Notes: generated by a model not told the origin, from the sequence alone. A stretch of DNA of 63,718 bases, filler included, from Licmophora abbreviata (GCA_900291995.1; 16 parts of 16 records of this genome joined end to end with filler, not necessarily neighbours in it), one strand, 5' to 3'; shown: positions 6,769-21,817, counted from the first letter of the whole stretch. Translations and numbers: made by a program.

Positions 6769-6983
6769 CAGTCGGCAGCGAGGCTCGCGGGGGCGTTTCG
6801 AATTGGGACTAAAAATGCAGTCATGACAACTCGTGAGTGAATCTACCCGAGAATCTCGATCGATCAGATCCGCGACGAACGTANNNNNNNNNNNNNNNNN
6901 NNNNNNNNNNNNNNNNNNNNNNNNNNNTTAATTAATTAANNNNNNNNNNNNNNNNNNNNNNNNNNNNNNNNNNNNNNNNNNNN

Positions 6984-7946
6984 AATTCTGGCTTGTCCGG
7001 AGTAAGTATCATTCTTGGTTTGTAGATTTCCATAGACATCATAGTTGGTGACACCGTCGAGTATATCAAACGGCTCATACGGGCCCACCGGTGCATCACG
7101 CCAGATCTGGTCCCCGACGATGAAGACTTCGTGTCCTCTGGATGCGGCGGCTTGTCGCATGAGGGTCACTATTTGTCCCAGAAGCCCGCGGTTGTTATAA
7201 AATCTAGAAACATAGACGAACAGAACTGGTCGTCCATCAATCCGAAGAAAGTTGGGGTGACCAAAGTAGCTGTCCGCAATGTGCTCGATATCTGGGATGA
7301 CATTGCTAAAATCGAACACACCCGAGTCTGCTTCCGTTTCTTCAACGCGATTTCGAGTCTCATAGAGAATGGAGATTTCCATATCCCCCAAATTTGGATG
7401 GGGCAGTATGACATCACGTAATGTCACATCTTCACGTTTGTCCGGTCCCCACCAGGACGAAATCCAAACTTGAATATTGGCCTGGCGACTCCATGTGAGA
7501 TGCTGATCAATCACAGCTGGGTCGGTGTCGTTGTAGAGACCCAGAGATGGTAGTTGTGGCGGATCCAGAGCTCCCCTCATGTACGGTCTCCCTCGATGAA
7601 AGTCATCGCCCCACCACGGATAGTAGTATACCGCTACTTTGGCCAAACTCTGTCTCTGTGATGGTGCAGGAGAAGCTGTCGGTGTCAACGTTTGGACTGG
7701 AGCTGCAGTTTTCATGGCCGGTCGATTGTCCATATTGAACGAGGCTCCGGCACCGCCTTGACTCCCGTCACCGCGTGGCCGATCGCCTGTTCCACCCGAC
7801 TGCAAATTTCGGCGACGTTCCAGTCCCCGTACACTCCTAGTGTCCCCCCTTTGTCCTGATATGATGATTGGGAGACAGAGCAGAACAAAGGAGCGCAAGG
7901 AAAGAGCGGCGATGGGGCGGAAGCTCCAACGCCGTCTCCGCATCAT
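6984..7946 (-). CDS. Glycoside hydrolase family 99-like (endo-alpha-mannosidase-like) secretory protein, 3'-truncated at the gap
   Basis: N-terminal hydrophobic segment; YYYPWW, PSLGLYNDTDPAVIDQH, SSWWG, YFGHPNFLRIDGRPVLFVY. Confidence 0.75.
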
Positions 7947-8272
7947 GGTCGTCTGTGCATTTTGTCACAAAAGGTAACAACGAGTTTGCAGAGGTTCGCC
8001 AAAATCGGGAGAGCGCGCGACATTTTGATGTTTTCCATTTTACGAGTACTTCCAACCGACGACGGCGCCCTGACCTGTTCGACATCCTCTCGTCGTTGCT
8101 TCTCTGCGCTTGTTGTGCTTTGTACCCTCTGGTGCTGCTCGGGTGCTTCCTCTGCTCCTGTCGCTGGCTCTTGGCGCGTTGAAAAGACCTTCGGCTCCTC
8201 TTTGTTTTGGATCGTCAGCTTGCAAAATGTGAATGCCACCTTTCTACTCGTATTGCATACAACATCACGGCG

Positions 8273-8866
8273 ATGAAGAAAGCAACGCAAACGCCATCGC
8301 CAACGACGATTCGCTTGGTCCAGGCTCAAGATACCGCTCAAGTCGCGCAACTGTGGAAGGATGGATTAGTCCAGACGACGCAAGCGGCACCCTTTTGGAT
8401 GAAGCCTTTGGTCAAGTACGTACTGTATGTCGAAGCCAGCCACGCACTCTCCGACACGGGCGATTTAGGGCCGCAAGGTTCCAACTTGATGAAGTTTTGG
8501 GGTACTACCAGCGATCGTGCGTTTTATGTGTCTGTGGATGAAAATGGAAAGGTAGTTGGATGTGTGGGCATTGTGGAGGGCACGTGCATGGATCCTCCGA
8601 CAACGACGAAATCATGTCGCGGCGACACTTGCTCGATCTGGCGCATGTCCGTCGCCGAATCAGCACGACGGCAAGGTGTTGGGTCAAGTTTACTACAACA
8701 AGCAGATGTATGGGCTCGCTCAAGAGGTGGTTGCAAGCGCGTACGACTCATTACCGGCAACCGAGTGGCACAGGAGTTCTACCAGAGCGCGGGGTATATC
8801 TTTGAGGGATGGTTGACGCCGCACATGATAAAGAACATTCACAATGATAGATCAACGGAGATCTAA
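8273..8866 (+). CDS. GNAT-family N-acetyltransferase (NAT8-like)
   Basis: ATG at 8273; RMSVAESARRQGVGSSL acetyl-CoA motif; NRVAQEFYQSAGY. Confidence 0.8.
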   Translation: MKKATQTPSPTTIRLVQAQDTAQVAQLWKDGLVQTTQAAPFWMKPLVKYVLYVEASHALSDTGDLGPQGSNLMKFWGTTSDRAFYVSVDENGKVVGCVGIVEGTCMDPPTTTKSCRGDTCSIWRMSVAESARRQGVGSSLLQQADVWARSRGGCKRVRLITGNRVAQEFYQSAGYIFEGWLTPHMIKNIHNDRSTEI

Positions 8867-8920
8867 TGATACGAGAAACGTCATATATCTACTCTACTTT
8901 TGTTCAGCAGTCGGCAACGC

Positions 8921-9761
8921 CTACGCTTCTGTGCTCTTGTTGAGATCATTTCGGTCCTCCGTACGATCCACTACTGCCTGCTCTTCCCCCAAAGCCGCGT
9001 CCTCGCCGACTAGGCCCTCCTCCTGATCCACATGTTTGGCTTGCTCGCCGTCATGGTTACTACCATCACGACCAATAAGGGGTACACAGCACGCCGCTCC
9101 AACGATGGCAGTCACGAGCCACAGGCAAGTGGAAACAATCCCAAAGATACCAGATGTCCCCAGTTCACAGTCCTGGGACGTAAGCACACCATCCGGGAGT
9201 CCCACCAGGAACGGGTTTTTACTGGCACCGCAAGCGCTGCTCTGAAAGAACAAAAGGACGAGACCCTGGAACGCCGCAACCATCACGTAATAAAACAAAA
9301 AGAGGAGTGGGCTTCCGATGCAAGCTAGCACTGATCCAAACAGACCAAAGATCGGTGCAATGATGGAAAAGGCTTGCGCAGTCTTCCATTTCGAGTCATT
9401 TTCCGTGTCCTCTGGGTATCCAGTGCAAGAGCCTGTTCTGATTATATTTCCAAAACCATCGTTTACGAAGGAGTACTTGAGATACTGCCAGGGGCCATAC
9501 AAGACGTCTTCCGTCCCACTGCCTACTGGCTGCCGGAGAGTGTACTTGGCGAAGTTGCACCATGAGACACTGACCAGAGAAAAGAAAAAGGCTAGAGCCA
9601 ACGAAGTAATGACCATACATACGGAGCGGTTTTGGCCCAAGTTGCTGTGAGTACTGGCGAGAAGGGGATGCAAGGTGAGGTCAACTCTGTCGCTCCATTC
9701 TGCCTGGGTCGATCGACCACACCCTTACTAGAGAGCTCACTCACTTCTTAAGCAAGGCCAT
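8921..9761 (-). CDS. Four-TM claudin/tetraspan-like membrane protein (2 exons)
   Basis: Four hydrophobic segments with extracellular Cys; short first exon MALLK(N) from ATG 9761; GTGAGT...CACAG intron joins in frame. Confidence 0.7.
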
Positions 9762-10548
9762 GACTGAGTTTTCGACTCTGAATGCGGTGGACGGAGGATT
9801 TCTAGCTTCGGAATGATGAGTGATGCCTTGGTGCGTGACACTATGAATGAATCTTTTGGAATCAATCTGACTGCAGTCCCTTTGGGGTTCTCTTTCGCAA
9901 TTTCAAATTCACTATCTAGCGGTTCTCGTCTCTGCCATGTACGAAGTCTAACTTTTATGCTAAAATTAGAGACAAGCGAATTCGAATCGTGACGCTAGGA
10001 ATCGTACCGGTACCGAAGCGCGACCTTCTTTGGTGGCGCGAAAGAGAACCAAGGTCTGGCCGCTGGGGCGACGGGAGATACGTGCGAACAATCGTTGTCG
10101 TCGTCAATGCACCTCAACACCTTCACAACAAGTGTGATGCGCTGCTGGCTTTGCGGAGGGAGGTAGGACATCTGTGGAACGAGCTAGTTTCATCCGATAT
10201 TCGCCTTGTGGTTCTAGTTGCGCTGTCGCGGCCGATGCCTGGACCTAAGGGTTGTATGGCTACCAGTGTATGTGTAAAAATAGAACGGTGTCATTGCTAC
10301 AAGTGTATGGTCGTTCAATCTGCATTTACTATCATCACTGCTTGATCTGCTACAATCTCTAATTTACGTGTCTCGTCACGGTAGCTCTCAAAACGCAAAG
10401 AGACAGATTACTCACATGCTTGTACTGTTGGACGAAGGCCACGGCACCCAGTCGCTCGCTCACTCGCTCGTAACTCCGCTTCCATTTCTCAATTCAACAT
10501 ATAGATTACCTCCAATCCACTCACTCTTCATCGGCGCCCACTTTGTGT

Positions 10549-11089
10549 TCATCGCTGCATGGTCATGCCCTTGACGTCCGCAATCTTCTTGCAGCACCCA
10601 GCGGCTTTACAAGGAAAGATGGTCAATCCGGCAATCGTAATTGCGAGCGGGACCTCCTCGGAACAGGGAACGGCCACGCTCGCGACGCAACAGCAGCAGT
10701 GAACCTGCCCACGAAGGAAGGAGCTGGAAGTTAAGCGAGACGCAGCAGCGTGAGTCGTCAATCTTTGAATGAATCTTCCAAACAGATTCGGTTCACTACC
10801 GCGCTAGAGACACATTGTTCTTTTCTTTTCTGTAGCTACACGATACTCACCACCCCTCGCACTCCATCTTGGGTCCACAGAAGATCAAGGGGAGACAGGG
10901 TGCTCCGGGCTTGCAACACATCTCGAGGTTGCAGCAGCACAAGCCAAGCTTGCCACTGCATCCCAGGCAGTCCGCTGAGGGCATGAGGGCCACATTGGCG
11001 CAGCAGCAAGCGCAACATAGGACGAGGTCGTCTTCATCAATCGCGTCATTGCTCTTCTGAGTCTGAAGCTGGTATTCGCCGTTGGGCAT
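10549..11089 (-). CDS. Small Cys-rich protein (137 aa, 24 Cys; exons 11089-10851 and 10723-10549)
   Basis: Two Cys-rich ORF pieces join in frame via a GTGAGT...TTCCAG intron (TG|C = Cys). Confidence 0.75.
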
Positions 11090-11525
11090 GGTAGAGAAGG
11101 CTTTACAAGGGGGAAAGAAATCGACGATGCTTGCGACAAAAGGTGTCAACGACACAAGCTTCAGGTGTTCTCTTGTTGAGGTTTTGCTGGTGGCACCACG
11201 GATTGGTGTTGGATTGGCGATACCCGGCGCCATCCGACCATTCATCTATGGATACTTATGGCGTGACTGGTGAACTAAATTTTGAGAACCTCGCCAAATG
11301 TACATTTATTTTAGAAAAGGACATTTCATGTGTTCGGCACTGGTATGGAATTTTGATGTATATGAAGACCTTGAGATGGTATATAATACCTGCGAGCTCT
11401 GTGCGAGCTCTGGTGGATCTTTCGCGTCGCTCAATTTTGCAATTTTGGCGGCCGCTCCATGAGAGACCAACGGCACGGTCACAAACAAACCGCAACGGAC
11501 GGAATCCATGCACAAGACAACTACA

Positions 11526-12110
11526 ATGCGCTCCTATTCGCCCATCGCTGCCCTGCTCCTCTTCCTCTCGGCTCTTGTGTCTTCTCAAGAGATCACAGGC
11601 AAGATCGTGTCTTGCTCTGGCTGAGCCTTGAATCGACTTCCGGAGCTCAAGTCCTTCTTGAAGGACTACGAGGCGGAGTCGTATCGCGGTGTCGAGGTGG
11701 AGTACATCCATGGACGCACTGCCAAATTAAGCATCCTGCATGATGGTGAATTCGCGGAGGAAATTCTATTGTCAGATTACAAAACAAAGGAAGAAATGCA
11801 CCAGTTGATGCTGGAAAAGGGCTTTGTCAAGAAGAACGAACAGGAACTGGCAGCGCTCGAGCAGAAGAAGATCGATGATGCCACGGCCGAAATGGAACGC
11901 AAAAAGGAGCAAAAGAGGAAACAGGAAGAGCGACGTAAGCAGCGAGAAAATAGAGATGACATCAAGCATGAGAGGCTCGAGAAAATGCGAGAAATCAAGG
12001 GGCTAAATGTTGATAGCAAGCTCAAGTACTTCAAGAGCGTCAAGGAGGGAGACGAAGATGGCGAAACGAAGGAAGAGGAACAAGAAACGGTCGAAGAAAA
12101 GGAGCTTTAG
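11526..12110 (+). CDS. SELENOM: Selenoprotein M-like (Sep15/SelM family) with in-frame UGA (Sec) at codon 33
   Basis: Signal peptide MRSYSPIAALLLFLSALVSS; SCSG-TGA(11622-11624)-ALNRLPELKSFL matches the SelM CxxU-xLNRL motif; C-terminal EKEL ER-retention-like signal. Confidence 0.88.
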
Positions 12111-12147
12111 AAATGAAACTCTGCAGGAAGCCCACGCCGAACGATAC

Positions 12148-12226
12148 GCATCATGGTTAGCCAGAATGACGCTGCAGGTCTGATGATGCTTGTTCTCAGA
12201 TCTTTTGCCGACGTGTGCTATGATAC
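12148..12226 (+). promoter_or_regulatory. Candidate SECIS element in the selenoprotein 3' UTR
   Basis: AUGAC (12166) / CGAC (12209) core; helix II GCUGCAGGUCUGA/UCAGAUCUUUUGC; helix I AUCAUGGU/GCUAUGAU; apical AA is absent. Confidence 0.4.
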
Positions 12227-12626
12227 AGGTTCGATCTTTTCGGCTTGGGTTCCTTGACAGATTCTCCACCAAAAGCCCCCACGACGCTCACTTTTGATAC
12301 GAAGTGGCGGAGCGTCGGGATGAACTCGTGGAAGTGAACGGTGAATGACGCAAGGGATTGTAGGGCAAATCGTTCGTAAAGATGCGATCCTTGCCTGGAG
12401 TCTCTCGCTGACCAACCGAAGTCATGGTACGACGAAGTTCGTCTCGCGTGTCGATTCGTAATTAGTCTAAAACCTACGGGTATGACAGTCACTCATTTTG
12501 TCGATCGAGTTCTATGCTCCATTTCTACTTCTTCTTCTTCTTCTCTCTACACATTCATTCCATACACGCGGGCGAGACTAGCCGTCTCATACAAACCACA
12601 GCCACAGTTGTCACTGTACAGTACTG

Positions 12627-14885
12627 TTAGCTGGAGTACGTCCCCTGTTCGACTCGTCTCCAGACTGCAAAGTGCTCCTTGGTGTCCTCTGAGGAGTCCA
12701 CTGACCGACTTGGCCTTTTCTTGGGAGGAGATGCCCGTGTAATCAGCAGGACCGAGTCCACTGAAACAATCTGTTGAGGGGCTGCTTGACCCACGTTGCT
12801 ACCACCCATGAACAGACCCGTGAGCATACCGCCCTTGGTTTCGACACTCGTTCGCGTCACGATTCGTCTGTCTTCTGAAAACTCTAAGTCGCCTCTCTGC
12901 GACACTGTAAGAAATCCTGCGGGACCTGAACTCTGAAACGACATGCAGTCGGTATCGACAGACTGCCATGCCAAGGTCGAGTTGAAGTACTTGACTCCGT
13001 CGCCCCGCTTGTCGGCCAGCAGCTGTAATCTCCATTCGCCATTGAGATTCTCAATCATATCAGATGGACTTGATAGATGAAACTCATCCATGCCAACCGC
13101 AATTGATTCCACCGGTTCGGGTTCTGAAGCAACGATCGGTCGACCGTCCATGACTGCCACAGGTTCTTTCGTCGGCGCAGCTCGTTTCAATTCTGCTTCC
13201 AGTGCGTCGTCAAAATGCCGAGCTAGAGATCGAAGTGCCTGGACTATCTTCAGTCGCTCCACCTCTCCAGACCCAGTCGCTTTCAACAGAATCTGACGAG
13301 CCTCACGATTTCCCCGTACGACACTCTCTGTCAGCCTTCGATAGAAACCTCCCTCCAGATCGACGTAAGCTGTCTGATAAACATCGTCAAAGTTTGACGC
13401 AATATTCGCAAGTCCTGTAGTGTCAATGAATGTATTGCGAATTTTCTTACGAGAGAACTCCGAGCTCCTTGCCTCCTCCCGCATAAACTGCATCGCTTCA
13501 ATACCGTATAAGAGTCGTTTGGCGTTCTGTTTGATTTCTTCGATGCGACATTTCGTGAGAGTAGTGTAGACTGTAACGGCTTCTTGCGTTCGTCCTTCAG
13601 CTTCATACGCCATGGCCAGCTCCAGAAAAACCTTGCCGCCCACTTTGGAATTCGTGGAGCACCACTTGGTAACTTTTTCCAGTGTCGTCACAGCTTGCCC
13701 GTACATGCCGCGCTGTGTAAGGAGAGCGAGCACGTGACGAATGCATAGATGAGAAATGAGTCCCAAGCCCGCTCTCGCAATTCAAACCTCGAAACGCGCA
13801 CATGCCATACATACCTGCATGGCATACCCCGCCACGATTAGGGCCCTATCAATCTCTTCCGCGTTGTCCTTCTCACTCTGCACTTCGATTCCTACTTTCT
13901 CCCTGTACTCTCGCAGACGTTTCCGCGTATCTTCAGCACTTTTTAACAGGGCAGTCTTGTCAATCCCCGCCCCGACACGACGTCCACCGCCATATGCTTT
14001 TGAAATATCCTTGGGTCGCTCAAATGCACCCCACGAGCCAGATTTCGGTTTGTAGGTTTCGACCTTTTTCGTGTCATCCTTGGCCCACGTGCCTCCGATG
14101 CCAGTCGTCGTCTGCTTGGGAGTCACCGATGAAGATGAGAGACTCGCCTCGTTGGAAGTCTTGGCTTCCTCTCGTAGTTGTCGTTCCTCTTCAGCACGCT
14201 TCATTTCTTTCTTCTGCCGCAGCTTCTTTGCCACCAGTTCAATGAGCTCTTCTTCCGACAGCGAGGGCTCATCTTCGCCATCGTCATCATCCTCTACGCC
14301 ATTGTCAAATAAAGATGGGTCCAAGACGTTGAATTCCGTCGTTTCAAACGAAGAAACAGGCCGGTCATAGGTAGAACTGTCGTCGTTCGTCGTAGAAGTA
14401 CCCTGCTTTGGCAACGACCCAAGCTGCCCCGGCCTTCGACTACTATTACCGATAGCAGTCGTTTCGTCGTCGTCGTCATCGTCGTCAGCTCCAAACCACT
14501 TTCTCTTCTTTCCCAGCTTATCTTTGATTTGATCACTATAATCATTCGCCGCCTTGCTCTGTCGCAGCCGTTGTCGCTGTTGCTTGATTTTGTCCAATGT
14601 AACGTCGCCGCTCGTCGTAGAGGAGTCTTCCTCATCGTCGTCATCTTGTTGTTGCTTTTTGAGTTTTCCAGCCCGTTTCAATCGCATAATCTTTCGTCGA
14701 ATTTCATTTTCTCGTCCAGGATCAACCACCATGTGGAGGGAAGGAGCGAGTCGGGCAGTACGGGTAGTAGAAACGGATGGTGAGAGGGCATAGCGTATTT
14801 TTGTTGTTGCCGTGTGGGGTTTCCCAGTCAGGCCGTAGACCGCCGAGGCACCAAGAAGGAGGAGCAGGCTTGTATGAGGTAGCAT
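12627..14885 (-). CDS. Plastid-targeted TPR-like protein with a C-terminal fibrillin/PAP-like region (intron 13814-13713)
   Basis: Signal plus transit peptide; [25 protein letters not shown] motif resembling plant chloroplast TPR proteins; TPR-like helices; [10 protein letters not shown]; phase-0 GT-AG intron. Confidence 0.7.
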
Positions 14886-15503
14886 TGCTTCCTTCAAAGG
14901 GCAACAGCTGTCCCGGAAACGAGCGAGTCAGTGAAGCGTCGGAGCAAGTATTGCCAATGCCCTCTCAGAGCGGAGTGAGAAACTTTGGTACTTTCCAAAA
15001 TTCAAAATTCAGAATTGAAACAAGTCTGGCAAGGAAGTGCTCTCTTTGTATCAGTAGTTGGGTTGTCGAGCAATGACAGTAGAGCTGCGAATCCCGTTCT
15101 GCGCCTCTATTTCGTGTCAGAACATTGACTTCACCATCTCTCACACACTGTGTCAGTCACAGCGCATGCTTGGACGCGTCTCGCCGTTCGTCCAGAGAAG
15201 ACCGAACTTGATGAGAATGTGTGTGGTGACGTGTCGCTTCAACACCATCTGTGGTTTTTGCGGCGCGCGCTTTTTCGAAGGGTCTGTCTGTCCATCCGAC
15301 GAGTAGTCTGTCCGTCGCCAGACGTACGTGAGAGCCACTCAACTCTCAAAACTGAAAACTTGAGACAAAGTTCGAAAAAGGATCGGCGGGAAAACGAAAA
15401 GCCGTCATCAGAAAAAAAGCATGACTGTCGCTCGTCTTGTTGTTATTGTTGTTGTAACCTGCCCTACACTGCTATCTACTCAAGTGGAACGAACGACACC
15501 ACT

Positions 15504-18500
15504 ATGCCCCGCAGCAAACAGAGAAGGAAGCGTTCCTCGCAGTCACACAACAAAAATGATTTGCCCTGGAAGAAGCTAGACGTCGGGCTCGGTGGCCGCA
15601 GTAACGATAACGATGGCGACGACAAGCATGTCGCCTCCTCTTTCATGATGGCGAAGAATCACTACGACGACAATGACGACAAGACGTTCAATGCACAAAT
15701 GGACCTTGAGGCGTTGCCGCAGGAGGACATGGCCATGTTTGTCGGACTCGAAGTTCTCGATCCTTGTGACTATCAAGTCAGTAGCGAGGGAAAGTTGGTA
15801 GTCATGAAGGAGCGCGAGGAAGCTTCGGGCGCCAAAAACGAACAGGAAGCCTCTACAAGTGAAACAAGAAAAGGCCAAAAGAAAAGACAGGTCGACGAAC
15901 ACTCGAAGGAAGAAGAAGGAAAGATCGGCCCGCCTGCCAAGAAAGCGAAAAAGGACAAGAAGAAACAGAGTAAGAAGAACAAGGATGCTGATACAAACGA
16001 ACCAATATCCTGTCAGAGTGACACACAGCAACAAGAAGAACTTCAATCGCTGCAGTTGTCATGGATGACGGCCACTGGTGGAGTCGTCTTGCACCAAGAC
16101 ATCTGTCGCGCCCTGCTCGCGCAGTCCTTTTGGACACCGACGCCGATTCAGCTTTATTCTTTGGCACCGGCAATACTAGGACGCCGCAATATTGTCGGAG
16201 CAGCGCCGACGGGATCGGGAAAGACTCTGGCGTACCTATTGCCGATCCTAGAGTACCTTATGGAACTGCAGTCGAAAGAGGAGCAAGCACCCAGCGAGAG
16301 GACAGCAAAACTGCCGCTGCAGGCAATTATACTCACACCCACAAGGGAACTGGCCTTGCAAGTGAGTCGGGAGTGTCAGAAACTTCATTCCTCAAGTAAC
16401 ATCTGCGGTGTCATTGTCGGAGGCCTCGCACGCGTCAAGCAGACACGGGTGCTGGAGCAGCGACGACCGCCCATCTTGGTGGCGACGCCTGGGCGACTGT
16501 GGGAGTTGGTACGTAGGGATCGCAGTGCACTCTGTCGCATTTTCCGTTGTCAATGTCGAAACGATATCGCTTTCTAGACATCCGTTTGATTTCAAGATGA
16601 AACGATAACGATTGCACGTCAGTCGGAGACAACGATTGATATAATATGCTGCATCGCTTTGGAATTGTCGGTGGTACGGATTCTCAAAGAGCGTCTCTCT
16701 ATTCTCTTTTACAGATGGCGACGATGGAATATGATCACTTGACAGACTTATCACAACTTCGATATCTGGTCATTGACGAGGCTGATCGAATGCTTCAGCA
16801 AGGGAGCTTTCGCGAACTCGTACGGATATTCGATGCAATTCATCGTGCGAATCCCATGGACGACGACGACGACGACGATGAAGACGAAAAAGAAGCGAGG
16901 AGTGTTGATGAAGACGGCATGGGAGCTGGTGATCGACTACTCGGTCTCCCAGGAGTCCCCGGCGAAGCCAAGGTGCAGATGCTGGATGATGTTCTCAAGC
17001 TGATGAAGCACCAGCGCAGAGAGGCCAACGAAGAGCCAGAACCCGTGGAAATGGACGATGCCGAATACGAAGAGCTACAGCGCGAACAACAAGAAGCAAT
17101 GTTAAGCGACGACGAAGGAGACGAGCTCTCCTTGCCAGCAGCTTCCTCGGTCAAACGGCAGACATTTGTTTTCTCGGCTACTCTGACCCTCCCTCCATCA
17201 GCATCGTACGTTGCACAGTGTAAGATCACGAAGAAAACGAAAGGAGGAAAAAAAGCACTGACGGTCGAAGGAGCGATTGCAGAATTGCTTGACAAGTCGA
17301 GGGCACATGGTCCAACAAAGATCGTTGATCTGACATCCAGCAAGAAAGACTCCAATTCAACGTTAGATAGACCAGCACAGGGCGCATCTGCTGTGGCTAG
17401 AGTTTCGTCTTCGCCACGCCTGCCCGACGGACTGTCTCTGTACAAGATTGAGTGCACGAAGCATCACAAGGACTCGCATTTGTATGCCTACCTCGTTACG
17501 ACCGCGCAAGGAGCCTCAGGGCCCTGTCTTGTGTTCTGCAATTCGATTGCCGCAGTGCATCGTGTGAGTGCCACTCTCAGAACATTGCGACTACCGGTCC
17601 GTGCCCTGCATGCCAACATGCCACAGGTAAGATTTGATTAGCTACCAAAGCGGCGAGAATATCAGCTATGAGGAAGCATTTGATTACCCGAAGCTCGCGA
17701 AGACTTGCATCGGAGCTAGTCAAAACGCCTAGCTTTCGTCTCGTTCTGTGAGCGTTAAAATATGGGGGTCATGTGAACAATCTCTGAGCCATATACCAGC
17801 CTTGTTGTGTGGAGCGTACATGCGCGTAACCCGCTTTTGGTCTCAATCCTTGTTTCGTCCCATCGCTCGTTTGAGCAGAAAGCACGCTTCAAGGCCGTCG
17901 AGAGTCTCCGAGATTCGAAAAGTCGTGCCATAGTTGTGGCGACTGATGTTGCGGCACGTGGTCTGGACATACCCTCTGTCGCGACTGTGGTGCATTACGA
18001 CGTGGCACGACAAGTTGACACGTTCATTCATAGGGCAGGAAGAACAGCGGTGAGTTCTATATCTTGAAATACAAGGGCGGTATCGGACGCGACAATGACG
18101 AAAAATCACAGGTATCGGACTAGAGTCTCCAACCATTCAGGGGTAGTAGCCTGAATCTGAGGAAAATACTTTTCCCTTGGCTGTCTGAGTCGCCACGGCA
18201 GTCATTATTTTAATTCCTTGCGAGTAATGCACCAGACTAACCGCACAATATTGCTTTCTCCCCCTTTTAGCGTGGCGTTGGTGAAAATGCGGTTGGAGCG
18301 AGTCTGTCGCTAGTATCATCCGACGAGGATAAAGCTCATGACAAGGTTTGCGATGCTCTGGACTCCAGAAAACTCTTTCAAGCTGTCGCAATCGACGGAC
18401 GCCTGCTTTCCGCGGCACAGGAACGCACCAATTTGGGATCGAAGATTGTGGCCTGCGACGAAGTCGAAAGCAGGGTACGACGACTGTTGATGTGTGCTTC

Positions 18501-18861
18501 CGTTTTTCTCTCTCGCGCACAGCTTGTCCTCACACTTTGAGCTGCTCTCGACCTTCCACAGACGAAGAAGAAGAATGATTGGTTTCAACACGCCGCTGAG
18601 GAAGCAGGTCTGGACTTGGACGAAGATTTGATCGACGAGGGACTCGCAGGTGGCGATCGTCGGGAACAGCAACAGCTCCAGGAAGCTCAGCGGGCCAAGA
18701 CAAGGCTGCGTGAGCTCCTTGCACAACCGATGCAAACTCAACGGTTCGGCAAGTTCTTGTCAAGCAATACGGCCGCGTCTGCACTTGAGACGGCGCCGTA
18801 CGTCGTCCCCACCACTCACCCCAGAAAGAAGAAGAGAAAGAAGATTGGTAAGAGGAAGTGA
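15504..18861 (+). CDS. DDX24: DEAD-box RNA helicase DDX24/MAK5 (5 exons)
   Basis: [48 protein letters not shown]; introns 16509-16714, 17627-17878, 18050-18270, 18475-18561 all splice in frame; N-terminal basic/acidic extension and C-terminal tail as in MAK5. Confidence 0.9.
16545..16634 (+). ncRNA. Intronic box C/D snoRNA, snR72/snoR72Y-like
   Basis: Terminal stem CGTTGTC/GACAACG; C-like box ATGTCGA; D-like box CGGA; guide TTGCACGTCAG complementary to the conserved LSU rRNA sequence CUGACGUGCAA. Confidence 0.72.
17664..17717 (+). ncRNA. Candidate compact intronic box C/D snoRNA
   Basis: Stem AGC/GCT; C ATGAGGA; D' CCGA; C' GCGAAGA; D-like CGGA; GCATTTGATTAC pairs imperfectly with LSU GUAGCCAAAUGC. 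Confidence 0.4.
18089..18193 (+). ncRNA. Intronic double-guide box C/D snoRNA, snoR37-like (SNORD52/snR78 plus SNORD53 targets)
   Basis: Stem GCGAC/GTCGC; C ATGACGA; D' CCAA; C' TGAGGA; D CTGA; guides TCGGACTAGAGTC (vs LSU GACUCUAGUCCGA) and TTCCCTTGGCTGT (vs LSU ACAGCCAAGGGAA). Confidence 0.85.
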
Positions 18862-18908
18862 TCTCTTGGTGAGTAACTTTGAATATGTGCTCTTGTGATT
18901 CTATTTAG

Positions 18909-19006
18909 GGACGGTGAAGAAGTCCATATGTTTTCGGACTAGAGTCTCCGACCATTCAGGGGTAGTAGCTTGAATCTGTGGATAAACATCGGTTGTGGCT
19001 GAGTCC
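18909..19006 (+). ncRNA. Box C/D snoRNA, paralog of the intron-3 snoRNA, downstream of the DDX24 stop
   Basis: Stem GGAC/GTCC; C GTGAAGA; D' CCGA; D CTGA; same TCGGACTAGAGTC guide and same internal hairpin. Confidence 0.8.
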
Positions 19007-19283
19007 ATTTTCATCACTCGCTCGAAGCCCCTTCGACAGATCACTGTAACCTTACTCTTTGCCTTGTTCTCCACTTCGGCATAGGGGTACGACGACGAGC
19101 GTAAGGGGCTCACACAGCTTATGTTAGCTATTTGAGTCTCGATCACGGTGATTATTTACTCTGGCCTGGAAATGCCCGGTTTGATATAACTTGTCACCCT
19201 GCATTCCTCTTCAACAAGCGGAAGAGGCGACTTTTTTCACCGTGAGACCTGAACGACAAGCCTTGTCTGCGGTGATGCACCAC

Positions 19284-20882
19284 TTAGCCTTCAAGCTTTG
19301 TCCTGGTGTGCCTTGACGTCGGCCTGGGTGTCGGCTTCACCGTCGTCACGACGATCGGGTCGTCCGCCTCTCCAACGAATCGGTCCATGAAGTGCATTCT
19401 GTTGGTGTGCTCGTTTACCACAAGACCCTCAAATCCATCCGACTGCCAGGTGTCTCGATTGACGTCAGCTCTCCGATAGTGTGCGAGGAGTCCCTCTTCT
19501 TCATCATTCAAACGATACGTCTTTGGCTGACTTCCATCCCACGTCACAAGAGGATAGTGGACGAAAAAGCTCCAGATACGCGTCGGCCGGAAAATAAGCT
19601 TCACGTCCGCGTAGTGAATTCCTGTCCAGCATCGCCATTTCGACATGATGGTTTGATTCGCCTGGACATATGCGCCGTTGCACGGAGCCATGATTGATGG
19701 TTTGAACTCCACCGCGTCGTACTTATCGTCGACAGACCGAACAAAATCCAGCACTGTCGAGTTAAATGATATAAAGAACTCGTCCACGTCCATATGCGCA
19801 AAGTACTCAGTCAAATGACCGTATCGATGCAATACGCTCAAGCTGGAAGCATGCTGCCCCCGTGCGTCGGAGTAGCCTTCCCATCCATCGATATCGCGTA
19901 GGCAATCCTTGAGTGGGAACCAGACGAATGTGACCAAACCGCTGTCCATGTATGGCTGAAGGATCTCTCGCAGAGGCTCCGGGTCTTCGTCATTGACAGC
20001 AAAAATGAAGTGATCCGCCCCTTGCCCCTCGTGGTAGGAGATCCACTCGCCCAGCAACTGCTTGTAAGGGAGCACTGTGCTCTCAAAATTGTCCTCTCTG
20101 ATTCCGTACTTGGACTTGATTCTCGTAAAGACAGTGAGATTTTGCTGCTGAACATTCGTCGTCGTGTTGTGGATAGCATTGCAGATTGGGAGCTGCTCCA
20201 GCATGGGAGTGTCGCGAATGTCCATGCTCGGAAATGGTCTGATATTTTGCACACCCATGGGCTTTGCTTCTAAATTCTCAATGGCGTGCAAGTCCACATG
20301 GAGCGTTGTAGTGCTCTGTGATTCTGCTACTAGATGCTGGTACTGTTCGGGGATACGACAGCGTATGACATCGCCGTTGGCATGACCCGGTGCCGCGTGG
20401 ATGAACTCTGTAAAGACATGACTTGATTCATCAAACGAACAGACAAAGCGATGTGCTCTGCCATCCTCGGCATCAAACCTGTCTGCCTCTCTCCATTCTT
20501 GAAGACATGCACCACGATTCACTGCTACAAAGTAGACCCACTGGGCGTCATGCGATGCAAACACGTCGGCCAGAAAAGGCAAGCCGGAGTTGTGATCGGG
20601 CCAGGGATAGTCGCGGTAGCCGCACGGAGACGAGTCAGCAGGGATGCCCCGCTTCCAGCTACCGACTTCTGTGACATCTCGTGGGTCTTCGGGTAATCTG
20701 AACATGGTGAAGCACAACGTGAAGACTGCAATGCAAGCCAAGATAGTGACTGCAATCAATTTGGGACTCTTGGTCGCCCACGGGCCGGGTCTTTCGGCTT
20801 GCGAGCGGATTTGGTAGCCCCCGTCCGCGTTCTCTTCGTCCGAGCTGAAGCTTTCGTCCATTGGGAAGTTTCCCGCCGTCAT
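19284..20882 (-). CDS. Glycosyltransferase family 92-like type II membrane protein
   Basis: N-terminal TM; EWISYHEGQGADHFIF and HMDVDEF (DxD) motifs. Confidence 0.75.
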   Translation of the reverse strand: MTAGNFPMDESFSSDEENADGGYQIRSQAERPGPWATKSPKLIAVTILACIAVFTLCFTMFRLPEDPRDVTEVGSWKRGIPADSSPCGYRDYPWPDHNSGLPFLADVFASHDAQWVYFVAVNRGACLQEWREADRFDAEDGRAHRFVCSFDESSHVFTEFIHAAPGHANGDVIRCRIPEQYQHLVAESQSTTTLHVDLHAIENLEAKPMGVQNIRPFPSMDIRDTPMLEQLPICNAIHNTTTNVQQQNLTVFTRIKSKYGIREDNFESTVLPYKQLLGEWISYHEGQGADHFIFAVNDEDPEPLREILQPYMDSGLVTFVWFPLKDCLRDIDGWEGYSDARGQHASSLSVLHRYGHLTEYFAHMDVDEFFISFNSTVLDFVRSVDDKYDAVEFKPSIMAPCNGAYVQANQTIMSKWRCWTGIHYADVKLIFRPTRIWSFFVHYPLVTWDGSQPKTYRLNDEEEGLLAHYRRADVNRDTWQSDGFEGLVVNEHTNRMHFMDRFVGEADDPIVVTTVKPTPRPTSRHTRTKLEG

Positions 20883-21817
20883 GATACGACTGTGTTGCTG
20901 TTCTGATGGAGTGCGTTGACGATGACTCGATGTTTGATGGCGGAACAGCGCTGTGGCACCGACATAAATGTGAGTACGGGAAAGAATTTTTCAATTTTCA
21001 AGACTTTTTTGTTTGCGCGGGAGAAAAAGTATGCATCCCGGTCCACCGAGCCAACGCTTATTTAACCGTCTCATTTTACAAGTTTGTGTACTTACGAGTA
21101 TACAAACTCCATCCGCCCCCGCCACCACCTGGTGTTATCTTCAATGCATAAACAGCGAATGAGCATACAAACGGTAGGGTTTCACATGGACAGTGAATGG
21201 AATCCTCTATGCTAGATACCAGAAGGACCGGAGGGTTGATTGATACCCGCAGTCCTTAGGGTTGCGCAGCTGCAGGGGTTAGTTTGGTATCTCCCCTGTA
21301 GAATCCTAAAAAGCCGTTCATGGAGCGTTGGCTGCGTACTGTAGGNNNNNNNNNNNNNNNNNNNNNNNNNNNNNNNNNNNNNNNNNNNNTTAATTAATTA
21401 ANNNNNNNNNNNNNNNNNNNNNNNNNNNNNNNNNNNNNNNNNNNNAGGCCAGTCGAGGGAACACGGACTAGCCGAAACGGGACCCTTCGAAGGGCCGACA
21501 AGGGAGAACGGACAACCGACGAGGACAGACGGGTGTGCTCGGCGCACCATCACGGGTTCAAGGTGCAGTTCGAGGTTATCTGGTATCATACTCTTTGGAA
21601 CTTGGTACCGGTACTAGGATCAGGGACACTGATACCGGTAGACTTGACCTTTTCTTGCGAACGGGATCATGCGGCAGAGAGGTGATATGTTTATGGTGTG
21701 TTGCTACGGGACCGACTCGTATTGCGCCGTGGCGATCGGCGGCGCACAGGTGAAAGAATACAAACGGCAAGCAACAAAACTTTCCGTGTGTCCCTTGATA
21801 TATTAGTATAAATCAAT

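Follow-up and report, generated by a model that had tools for sequence, protein, structure and literature searches.

What becomes of a guide RNA when it is duplicated and one of its guides moves along the target by two nucleotides (nt) is the question raised by two snoRNAs (small nucleolar RNAs) of the box C/D type in the diatom Licmophora abbreviata (GCA_900291995.1), found in and just behind a gene for a DDX24/MAK5-type RNA helicase in the window studied here, that is, the whole stretch of 63 718 nt that was analysed. An initial annotation of this DNA described the second RNA (copy 2) as a duplicate of the first (copy 1) in which the guide before box D had itself slid to a new predicted target in the large-subunit (LSU) ribosomal RNA (rRNA). 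In the following it is argued that the shifted guide (the +2 register, after the two letters added before box D) is widespread in diatoms and that copy 2 is an eroded member of this type. With a probability a little better than even, copy 2 would be kept mainly as a second guide for a ribose-methylated uridine (Um), with at most fractional methylation of an adenosine (Am), and copy 1 would be a standard double guide for the same Um and for a methylated cytidine (Cm).

In both copies a short stem joins the ends next to the terminal boxes C and D, and an internal D′/C′ pair is present, as expected of box C/D snoRNAs; their guides, hairpins, stems and boxes were all located where the initial annotation had put them. 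The duplication that it proposed is borne out by a core of 52 nt with 92% identity and by an identical D′ guide, and the terminal stems are indeed different, each being able to pair. A pattern composed of both guides and box D has two matches in the window and none in 100 shuffles, and the two variants of box C (ATGACGA and GTGAAGA) are both seen in relatives. Over the full model, the best Rfam match of either copy is snoZ157 (RF00333), with 32.6 bits (E 0.00067) for copy 1 and 30.2 bits (E 0.0031) for copy 2, against a gathering score of 55, at which the window has no Rfam match. A relative (L052) passes the same threshold with 56.7 bits. Homology to RF00333 is probable, and both copies appear to be snoRNAs of the snoR37/Z157 type, their scores lying below those of formal Rfam members.

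The target sequences were eukaryote LSU fragments contaminating prokaryote assemblies (21 loci, L017–L037), which were chosen for carrying both guide targets, are not assigned to a taxon and are not those of this diatom; alternative targets were sought in LSU, 5.8S and 357 nt of 18S rRNA. In the genome collection, no fewer than 21 prokaryote assemblies are contaminated by eukaryote rRNA. In viral contigs a two-part pattern for eukaryote LSU had no match, nor was any found in the phage collection searched with LSU, and 16 viral-contig matches to a 14-mer were taken as chance and left unused.

Each of the two guides of copy 1 forms 13 base pairs (bp) with the LSU fragments, and the C and U that they select are 56 nt apart, the same spacing as that of Arabidopsis C2366 and U2422. 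From the D′ guide one may predict Um at the position equivalent to Arabidopsis U2422, yeast U2421 and human U3925 (3904), and from the D guide Cm at that of Arabidopsis C2366 and human C3869 (3848), the plant and human sites being equated (C2366/U2422 with Cm3869/Um3925) in PMC8583080. Copy 1 thus has the combination that defines snoR37, a D′ guide for Um and a D guide for Cm on one RNA. The D′ guide of copy 2 would direct Um at the same U. An antisense element of at least about nine consecutive pairs before box D or D′ is present in both D′ guides and in the D guide of copy 1; in Arabidopsis, at least nine consecutive pairs are reported for 100 of 104 assigned sites (PMC8053127).

The D guide of copy 2 pairs at positions 1–8, with a G-U at position 6, and is mismatched at positions 9, 11 and 13; against the eukaryote LSU fragments it selects the A two nt 5′ of the C of copy 1, just as had been claimed, and a weak Am may be predicted at the site of human A3867 (3846). 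On this prediction copy 2 is a derived snoR37 variant, with the D′ guide present and the D guide in another register. The two C's needed by guide positions 1–2 are present in 18 of the 21 fragments. By itself, the 8-bp match is at chance level, being equalled or exceeded beside box D somewhere in LSU by 60 of 150 shuffled spacers, and therefore the assignment of copy 2 to the +2 register follows from homology to intact +2 copies and not from its own pairing. Over guide positions 2–12 the duplex energy is −21.7 kcal/mol in copy 1, −21.1 where the +2 guide is intact and −10.5 in copy 2, and two other LSU windows bind the D guide of copy 2 equally well or better (energies compared: −11.1, −10.5 and −10.5 kcal/mol). 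One might suppose that this guide has moved to a further LSU site, 1843 (L037 numbering), where a 9-nt run with one or two G-U pairs adjoins box D and which suits each of the three changes at positions 1, 6 and 9. Such a move is scarcely probable: nine or more pairs beside box D somewhere in LSU are reached by 26 of 150 shuffled spacers, the energy (−10.0) is no better than at the ancestral site, the change occurs in no related copy, and the accessible parts of PMC8053127 and PMC11542601 list no Arabidopsis site between A1871 and U1892.

How the +2 register is distributed becomes apparent from the relatives of the two RNAs. A single scan of metagenomes turned up 30 matches, which fall in 26 loci, and a profile built from the copies then found further neighbours; because the scan pattern demanded an intact guide core, intact guides are over-counted. 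Three of the 26 loci (L046, L048 and L057), which have neither box C nor a match to the family-wide profile, were dropped as chance. Eleven of the 26 are DDX24/MAK5 loci, and three others (L040, L051 and L055) carry original-register copies just upstream of a reading frame with a RanBP1 domain, a second host locus for the family. In the locus of the relative that passes the Rfam threshold (L052, 1547 nt) the three guides of the DDX24/MAK5 host recur in unchanged order, but this locus gave no tblastn match to the host.

The original register is seen in 21 of the 34 copies that were scored, all with 10–13 bp and no G-U, and the +2 register in 13, or 11 once two near-duplicates are removed. These 11 distinct +2 copies, out of 27 in the family, come from host genes of pennates and Thalassiosirales. 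The +2 guide is intact, with 12–13 bp, in seven of these 11 (L039, L041, L050, L056, L058, L060 and L063) and eroded in four (L043, L044, L061 and the window), two of which are broken within the core (L044 at position 5, L061 at positions 6–7). The D′ guide is kept in all 11, but the majority of them had been detected by this very guide. Against RF00276, a score of 27.1 bits is reached by one diatom +2 copy whose D guide is broken. In the seven host loci where an original-register copy has a neighbour of the second type, this is intact in three (L041, L058 and L063), broken in two (L044 and L061), a relic in one (L049) and weak in the window. The +2 shift is thus genuine and occurs widely, yet it is labile. 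The relic (L049 3711–3776, + strand; profile E 0.023) is decayed and follows the stop codon of its host, in the position that copy 2 has in the window. In L044 a U14-like snoRNA (2855–2949, − strand; 38.8 bits) lies between two family copies in the same host intron. Stretches complementary to the +2 guide, which may be chance, occur on the minus strand of L039 (2493–2502, 10 nt) and L060 (496–503, 8 nt), in both of these Thalassiosira-like loci within the preceding snoRNA-bearing intron.

In register copy 2 agrees with a SNORD92-type Am guide, but its duplex has 8 bp including one G-U as opposed to the 12–13 bp of seven relatives, and it would be at best a putative guide of that type; it differs from an intact +2 guide at five of 13 positions. 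Since these five positions differ while the +2 guide is widespread in diatoms, copy 2 is best regarded as an eroded +2 member, and the proposal that it had itself slid to a new target is not upheld.

The internal hairpin had been described as a structure only. As such it stands, both copies folding as 7 bp with an 8-nt loop and differing by one G-C to G-U change that preserves the stem, but the complementarity of the conserved loop to LSU had been missed. The loop, which is the same in both copies, allows 9 nt of pairing (two G-U) with LSU 2301–2309 (L037 numbering), a segment that lies 10–18 nt 5′ of the D-guide target and ends 10 nt before it. The loop motif TAGTAG is found in 20 of 27 copies (20 of 23 if hairpin-bearing copies alone are counted), and among 144 LSU windows its best partner is the one beside the D target (mean Watson-Crick run 5.59; next 5.11; mean 4.23). 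In stems fitted around the loop sequence by sequence (22 copies), a single position can have as many as five types of pair. In yeast, loop pairing of this kind boosted methylation up to five-fold (PMC3116282), and extra pairing has been proposed for SNORD53 and SNORD92 (PMC8522698). The loop probably provides an accessory pairing next to the D target; a third copy in L063, with a broken D′ guide and with loop and D guide kept, would be consistent with a loop that serves the D guide. A match of 11 nt between the 5′ arm of the hairpin and LSU 1712–1722 was rejected, the arm being paired and variable among relatives.

That copy 2 is retained chiefly for Um is suggested by its D′ guide, box D′, terminal stem and hairpin, all intact while the D guide has changed. 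Several observations weigh against so modest a role, or against the ground on which it is argued. The three changes of the copy 2 guide that break pairs all fall at positions 9–13 (p about 0.045 if random, a value inflated by the choice of copy 2 for its still matching guide core), while within the core one change keeps a wobble pair and position 1 has gained a pair, a pattern that hints at continued selection for Am. Real Arabidopsis sites with duplexes of 7–8 bp are on record, one of them, A2362, in this same stretch (PMC8053127). Furthermore, the rRNA compared is foreign to this diatom, the loop statistic is in effect that of a single 6-mer because the sequences are related, and with RNAalifold on the plain alignment neither the internal hairpin nor any compensatory pair came out. 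Within the reading of copy 2 as mainly a Um guide, the chance of a measurable Am falls somewhat short of even. A guide that is simply decaying, the outcome which the initial annotation had named as fatal to its own proposal, is about as likely as one with partial function.

At one extreme, copy 2 could be a fully working double guide for Um and Am, its 8-bp core and the accessory pairing of its loop sufficing for efficient Am. The absence of mismatches from positions 1–8, with breaks only further out, an unchanged loop, an Arabidopsis site assigned to a 7-bp main plus an 8-bp extra duplex (PMC8053127) and the extra pairing proposed for the two human RNAs all agree with this; it is nonetheless unlikely, given a duplex energy that is half that of intact guides and no better than at other LSU windows, a G-U pair adjoining the target pair, and the cores of the other eroded +2 copies (L044, L061), which are broken. 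At the other extreme, copy 2 might be a dying duplicate whose core is intact only by recent gene conversion from copy 1. The identity limited to the central 52-nt tract, the fact that the nearest sequence of each window copy is the other window copy, and the relic at the same place in L049 would be explained, but boxes C and D and a different yet paired terminal stem are intact outside the tract, the single change in the hairpin stem keeps pairing and the spacing to the splice sites is kept, so that we consider this very improbable. Because box D′ of copy 1 (CCAA) lacks the usual GA, copy 1 being one of only two such among 27 family copies, and copy 2 has the common CCGA, a division of labour may also be envisaged in which Cm would fall mostly to copy 1, with its strong D guide and weakened box D′, and Um mostly to copy 2, with its typical box D′ and weak D guide, a step towards the separate RNAs of vertebrates. 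Yet the D′ guide of copy 1 is still perfect, divergent C′/D′ motifs are active in yeast (PMC3116282), and the other GA-less copy (L049) has a relic as its only neighbour; this arrangement is distinctly unlikely, if less so than a dying duplicate. Retention of copy 2 mainly as a second Um guide beside a standard double guide, copy 1, is the reading adopted here.

As to how the shift arose, the two letters added before box D are GT in eight of 11 +2 copies, repeating the last two letters of the guide, and the added GT pairs at once because the LSU target is a CA repeat. A tree of the snoRNA scaffold, with the D guide left out (27 rows, 81 columns), omitted eight of 35 profile hits, namely the near-duplicates L053, L054, L059 (two) and L062, the divergent L045 and L047, and the L049 relic. 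On this tree, which is poorly resolved (two of 24 branches starred), the +2 copies do not form one clade, with nine changes compared with a shuffled mean of 8.8 and p 0.0045 in the approximately unbiased (AU) test; without four copies that lack the hairpin, the test of one clade gives p 0.0076. In L041 and L061 the hairpin is missing from both copies. Since the +2 copies are not one clade, either GT slips were repeated or gene conversion took place. Repeated slips would fit, and are favoured by the GT in eight of 11 copies; a single old +2 paralogue homogenized by gene conversion would fit as well, and is favoured within pennates by the shared position at the gene end. Indeed, +2 copies lie at the gene end in pennate hosts and inside the intron after codon 696 in hosts grouping with Thalassiosira and Cyclotella. 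A bolder proposal, in which the +2 register arose by GT slip repeatedly in diatoms and separately in vertebrates, the Am site was repeatedly born and lost, and the 8-bp guide of the window is active via its loop, is tentative and somewhat unlikely as a whole; independence from vertebrate SNORD92 is suggested by the double-guide scaffold of the diatom RNAs.

The sequence of events that this implies is conventional. Intronic snoRNAs are released by processing of introns. Splicing of the DDX24/MAK5 pre-mRNA would free both introns, from which trimming would leave two C/D RNAs. Copy 1 would guide Um and Cm at the sites of Arabidopsis U2422 and C2366. Copy 2 would belong to the diatom-wide type whose D+5 site, owing to two extra nucleotides ahead of box D, falls no longer on the C but on the A that lies two nt upstream (the D+5 rule is stated in PMC3116282). 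With its +2 guide eroded in this species, it would guide Um and, weakly or not at all, Am, possibly with help from the loop pairing next to the target. The sequence features, the pairing potential with eukaryote LSU, the host gene and how far the +2 copies have spread and eroded are observed; it is inferred that the second intron is spliced, that the RNAs are expressed, that each of the sites is methylated and that the loop takes part.

The host is, to judge from its predicted protein, the DDX24/MAK5 gene of a pennate diatom: Pfam DEAD and Helicase_C domains are found, the best named homologues are diatom proteins, several of them labelled DDX24/MAK5, and those above the E 1e-40 level are all from diatoms except for one Parmales protein. 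In a quick protein tree, the host protein falls within a 15-row set with pennate diatoms with a support of 100 in the Shimodaira–Hasegawa-like approximate likelihood-ratio test (SH-aLRT). The intron of copy 1 follows codon 696, where family copies are found in related loci too. Around copy 2, a predicted intron in the 3′ untranslated region (UTR) had escaped the initial annotation: the GTGAGT donor is 7 nt past the host stop codon, and a pyrimidine tract and TAG end it. The two introns agree in their spacing, with 45 nt between donor and box C and 82 nt between box D and AG, and in three other pennate loci (L041, L061 and L049) the coding sequence ends at or shortly before a donor-like site that precedes a copy or relic. 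Because of these splice signals, the matching spacing and the similar pennate loci, copy 2 very probably lies inside a 3′ UTR intron. Short contigs from four sequencing runs, none listed as RNA, contained no splice joint for the host introns; one run contig equals window 18954–19237 without difference, and the run may itself be the source of the window. The coordinates are collected in table 1.

Table 1. Positions, in the window, of the helicase gene, its snoRNA-bearing introns and the parts of the two snoRNAs.
Feature	Position	Strand	Remarks
DDX24/MAK5-type DEAD-box RNA helicase gene	15504..18861	+	863 amino acids; GT-AG introns, open frame
Host gene exons (five)	15504-16508, 16715-17626, 17879-18049, 18271-18474, 18562-18861	+	
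Intron 3, carries copy 1	18050..18270	+	221 nt; GT-AG; removal restores frame
Predicted 3′ UTR intron, carries copy 2	18869..19084	+	216 nt; GTGAGT donor, pyrimidine tract, TAG
snoRNA copy 1	18089..18193	+	5-bp terminal stem GCGAC/GTCGC
Copy 1 boxes	C 18095-18101 (ATGACGA); D′ 18129-18132 (CCAA, degenerate); C′ 18157-18163 (CTGAGGA); D 18185-18188 (CTGA)	+	
Copy 1 internal hairpin	18135..18156; arms 18135-18141/18150-18156, loop 18142-18149	+	
Copy 1 D guide	18172..18184	+	13 bp Watson-Crick; directly before CTGA
snoRNA copy 2	18909..19006	+	4-bp terminal stem GGAC/GTCC
Copy 2 boxes	C 18914-18920 (GTGAAGA); D′ 18948-18951 (CCGA, family-typical); C′ 18976-18982 (CTGTGGA); D 18999-19002 (CTGA)	+	
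Copy 2 internal hairpin	18954..18975; arms 18954-18960/18969-18975, loop 18961-18968	+	loop same as copy 1
Copy 2 D guide, +2 register	18986..18998; pairing part 18991-18998	+	eroded; pairing part directly before CTGA
Shared D′ guide TCGGACTAGAGTC	copy 1 18115-18127; copy 2 18934-18946	+	identical; 13 bp to LSU

The window itself is a chain of short contigs with 15 artificial linkers (44 N, a 12-nt stop sequence and 44 N; e.g. 6884–6983 and 21346–21445), and thus neighbours across linkers are not real neighbours; the piece from 6984 to 21345 contains both snoRNAs. On the same piece, a convergent gene with a glycosyltransferase family 92 domain occupies 19284–20990 (− strand). Two other introns of the host hold further C/D snoRNA candidates. 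The one in intron 1 (16545–16634, + strand), with a box D of CGGA and a weak Rfam match to snoZ122 (E 4.1), has a 12-nt guide that pairs with LSU and selects A883 (L037 numbering), probably the site of Arabidopsis A885, and this guide is found again in seven related loci. The one in intron 2 (about 17664–17790, + strand) has no Rfam match, and its guide, recurring in eight related loci, selects U2876 (L037 numbering), which seems to correspond to U2922 of the A-loop, a site served by snR52 in yeast and left without an identified guide in Arabidopsis (PMC8053127).

If the predictions hold, many diatoms carry a ribose methylation that is known in humans and not at that position in Arabidopsis, and its predicted guide is a double-guide RNA for Um and Am. 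The range of copies in a single host gene, from intact through eroded to relic, would offer a natural test of the minimal length of a guide, of whether loop pairing rescues a guide and of whether rRNA marks arise convergently. No new mechanism is indicated, duplication of snoRNAs, change of target and extra pairing all being documented (PMC3116282, PMC5824354).

Among known systems the closest is plant snoR37 (Rfam snoZ157, RF00333, Z157/R69/R10; clan CL00063), which has the same two guides in the same order on one RNA; that its layout combines a Um and a Cm guide, as the initial annotation had stated, is confirmed for Arabidopsis U2422 (D′) and C2366 (D) by PMC8053127 and PMC8583080. The window copies differ in scoring under the gathering threshold and in their loop, the consensus loop of RF00333 not being TAGTAG. 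For Arabidopsis, the accessible part of PMC8053127 lists no +2 variant and assigns the neighbouring site A2362, four nt from C2366, to SnoR43.12; PMC8583080 equates A2362 with human Am3867, which by count is two nt from the C. In what appear from the plant scope of the source to be the tomato and maize columns, the part of PMC11542601 available lists no Am at the 2362 site.

Yeast snR78 and SNORD52 (RF00276) share the Um site, yeast 25S 2421 being the D′ target of snR78 in PMC5824354, whose accessible part describes no guide for the C or the A on that RNA. The conserved loops between D′ and C′ of yeast snR70, snR75 and snR76, complementary to rRNA next to a target, are comparable to that of the diatom RNAs (van Nues 2011, PMC3116282); unlike these, the diatom loop has a predicted function only, with its partner beside the target of the D guide and not of the D′ guide.

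Vertebrate SNORD53 and SNORD92 (RF00325, also clan CL00063) are likewise paralogues in one host gene. SNORD92 guides Am at human A3846 (3867) (PMC9941101), which is fractionally methylated (PMC5027482), and the SNORD53 and SNORD92 sites, C3848 and A3846, are both called hypomethylated (PMC8522698). Unlike them, the diatom RNAs include the Um guide too, for which humans have a separate RNA, SNORD52. When the 3′ end of an intact diatom +2 copy is aligned to the RF00325 consensus, two nt are inserted immediately ahead of box D, at a score (10.6 bits, E 9.9) that is not significant, and the 3′ half of copy 2 gave no match to RF00325, whose gathering score is 46. In the literature searched, most subscription papers being outside its scope, neither a diatom member of the family nor a combination of Um and Am was found described. 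The parallel with SNORD53/92 drawn in the initial annotation, C3848 and A3846 being served by one family in one host gene, is better supported than it was there, because seven distinct diatom copies have an intact +2 guide of 12–13 bp. To judge from sequence comparison, then, the two RNAs of the window are an ordinary pair of guide RNAs, and their one twist is a +2 variant, found diatom-wide and parallel to SNORD92, that copy 2 represents in eroded form.

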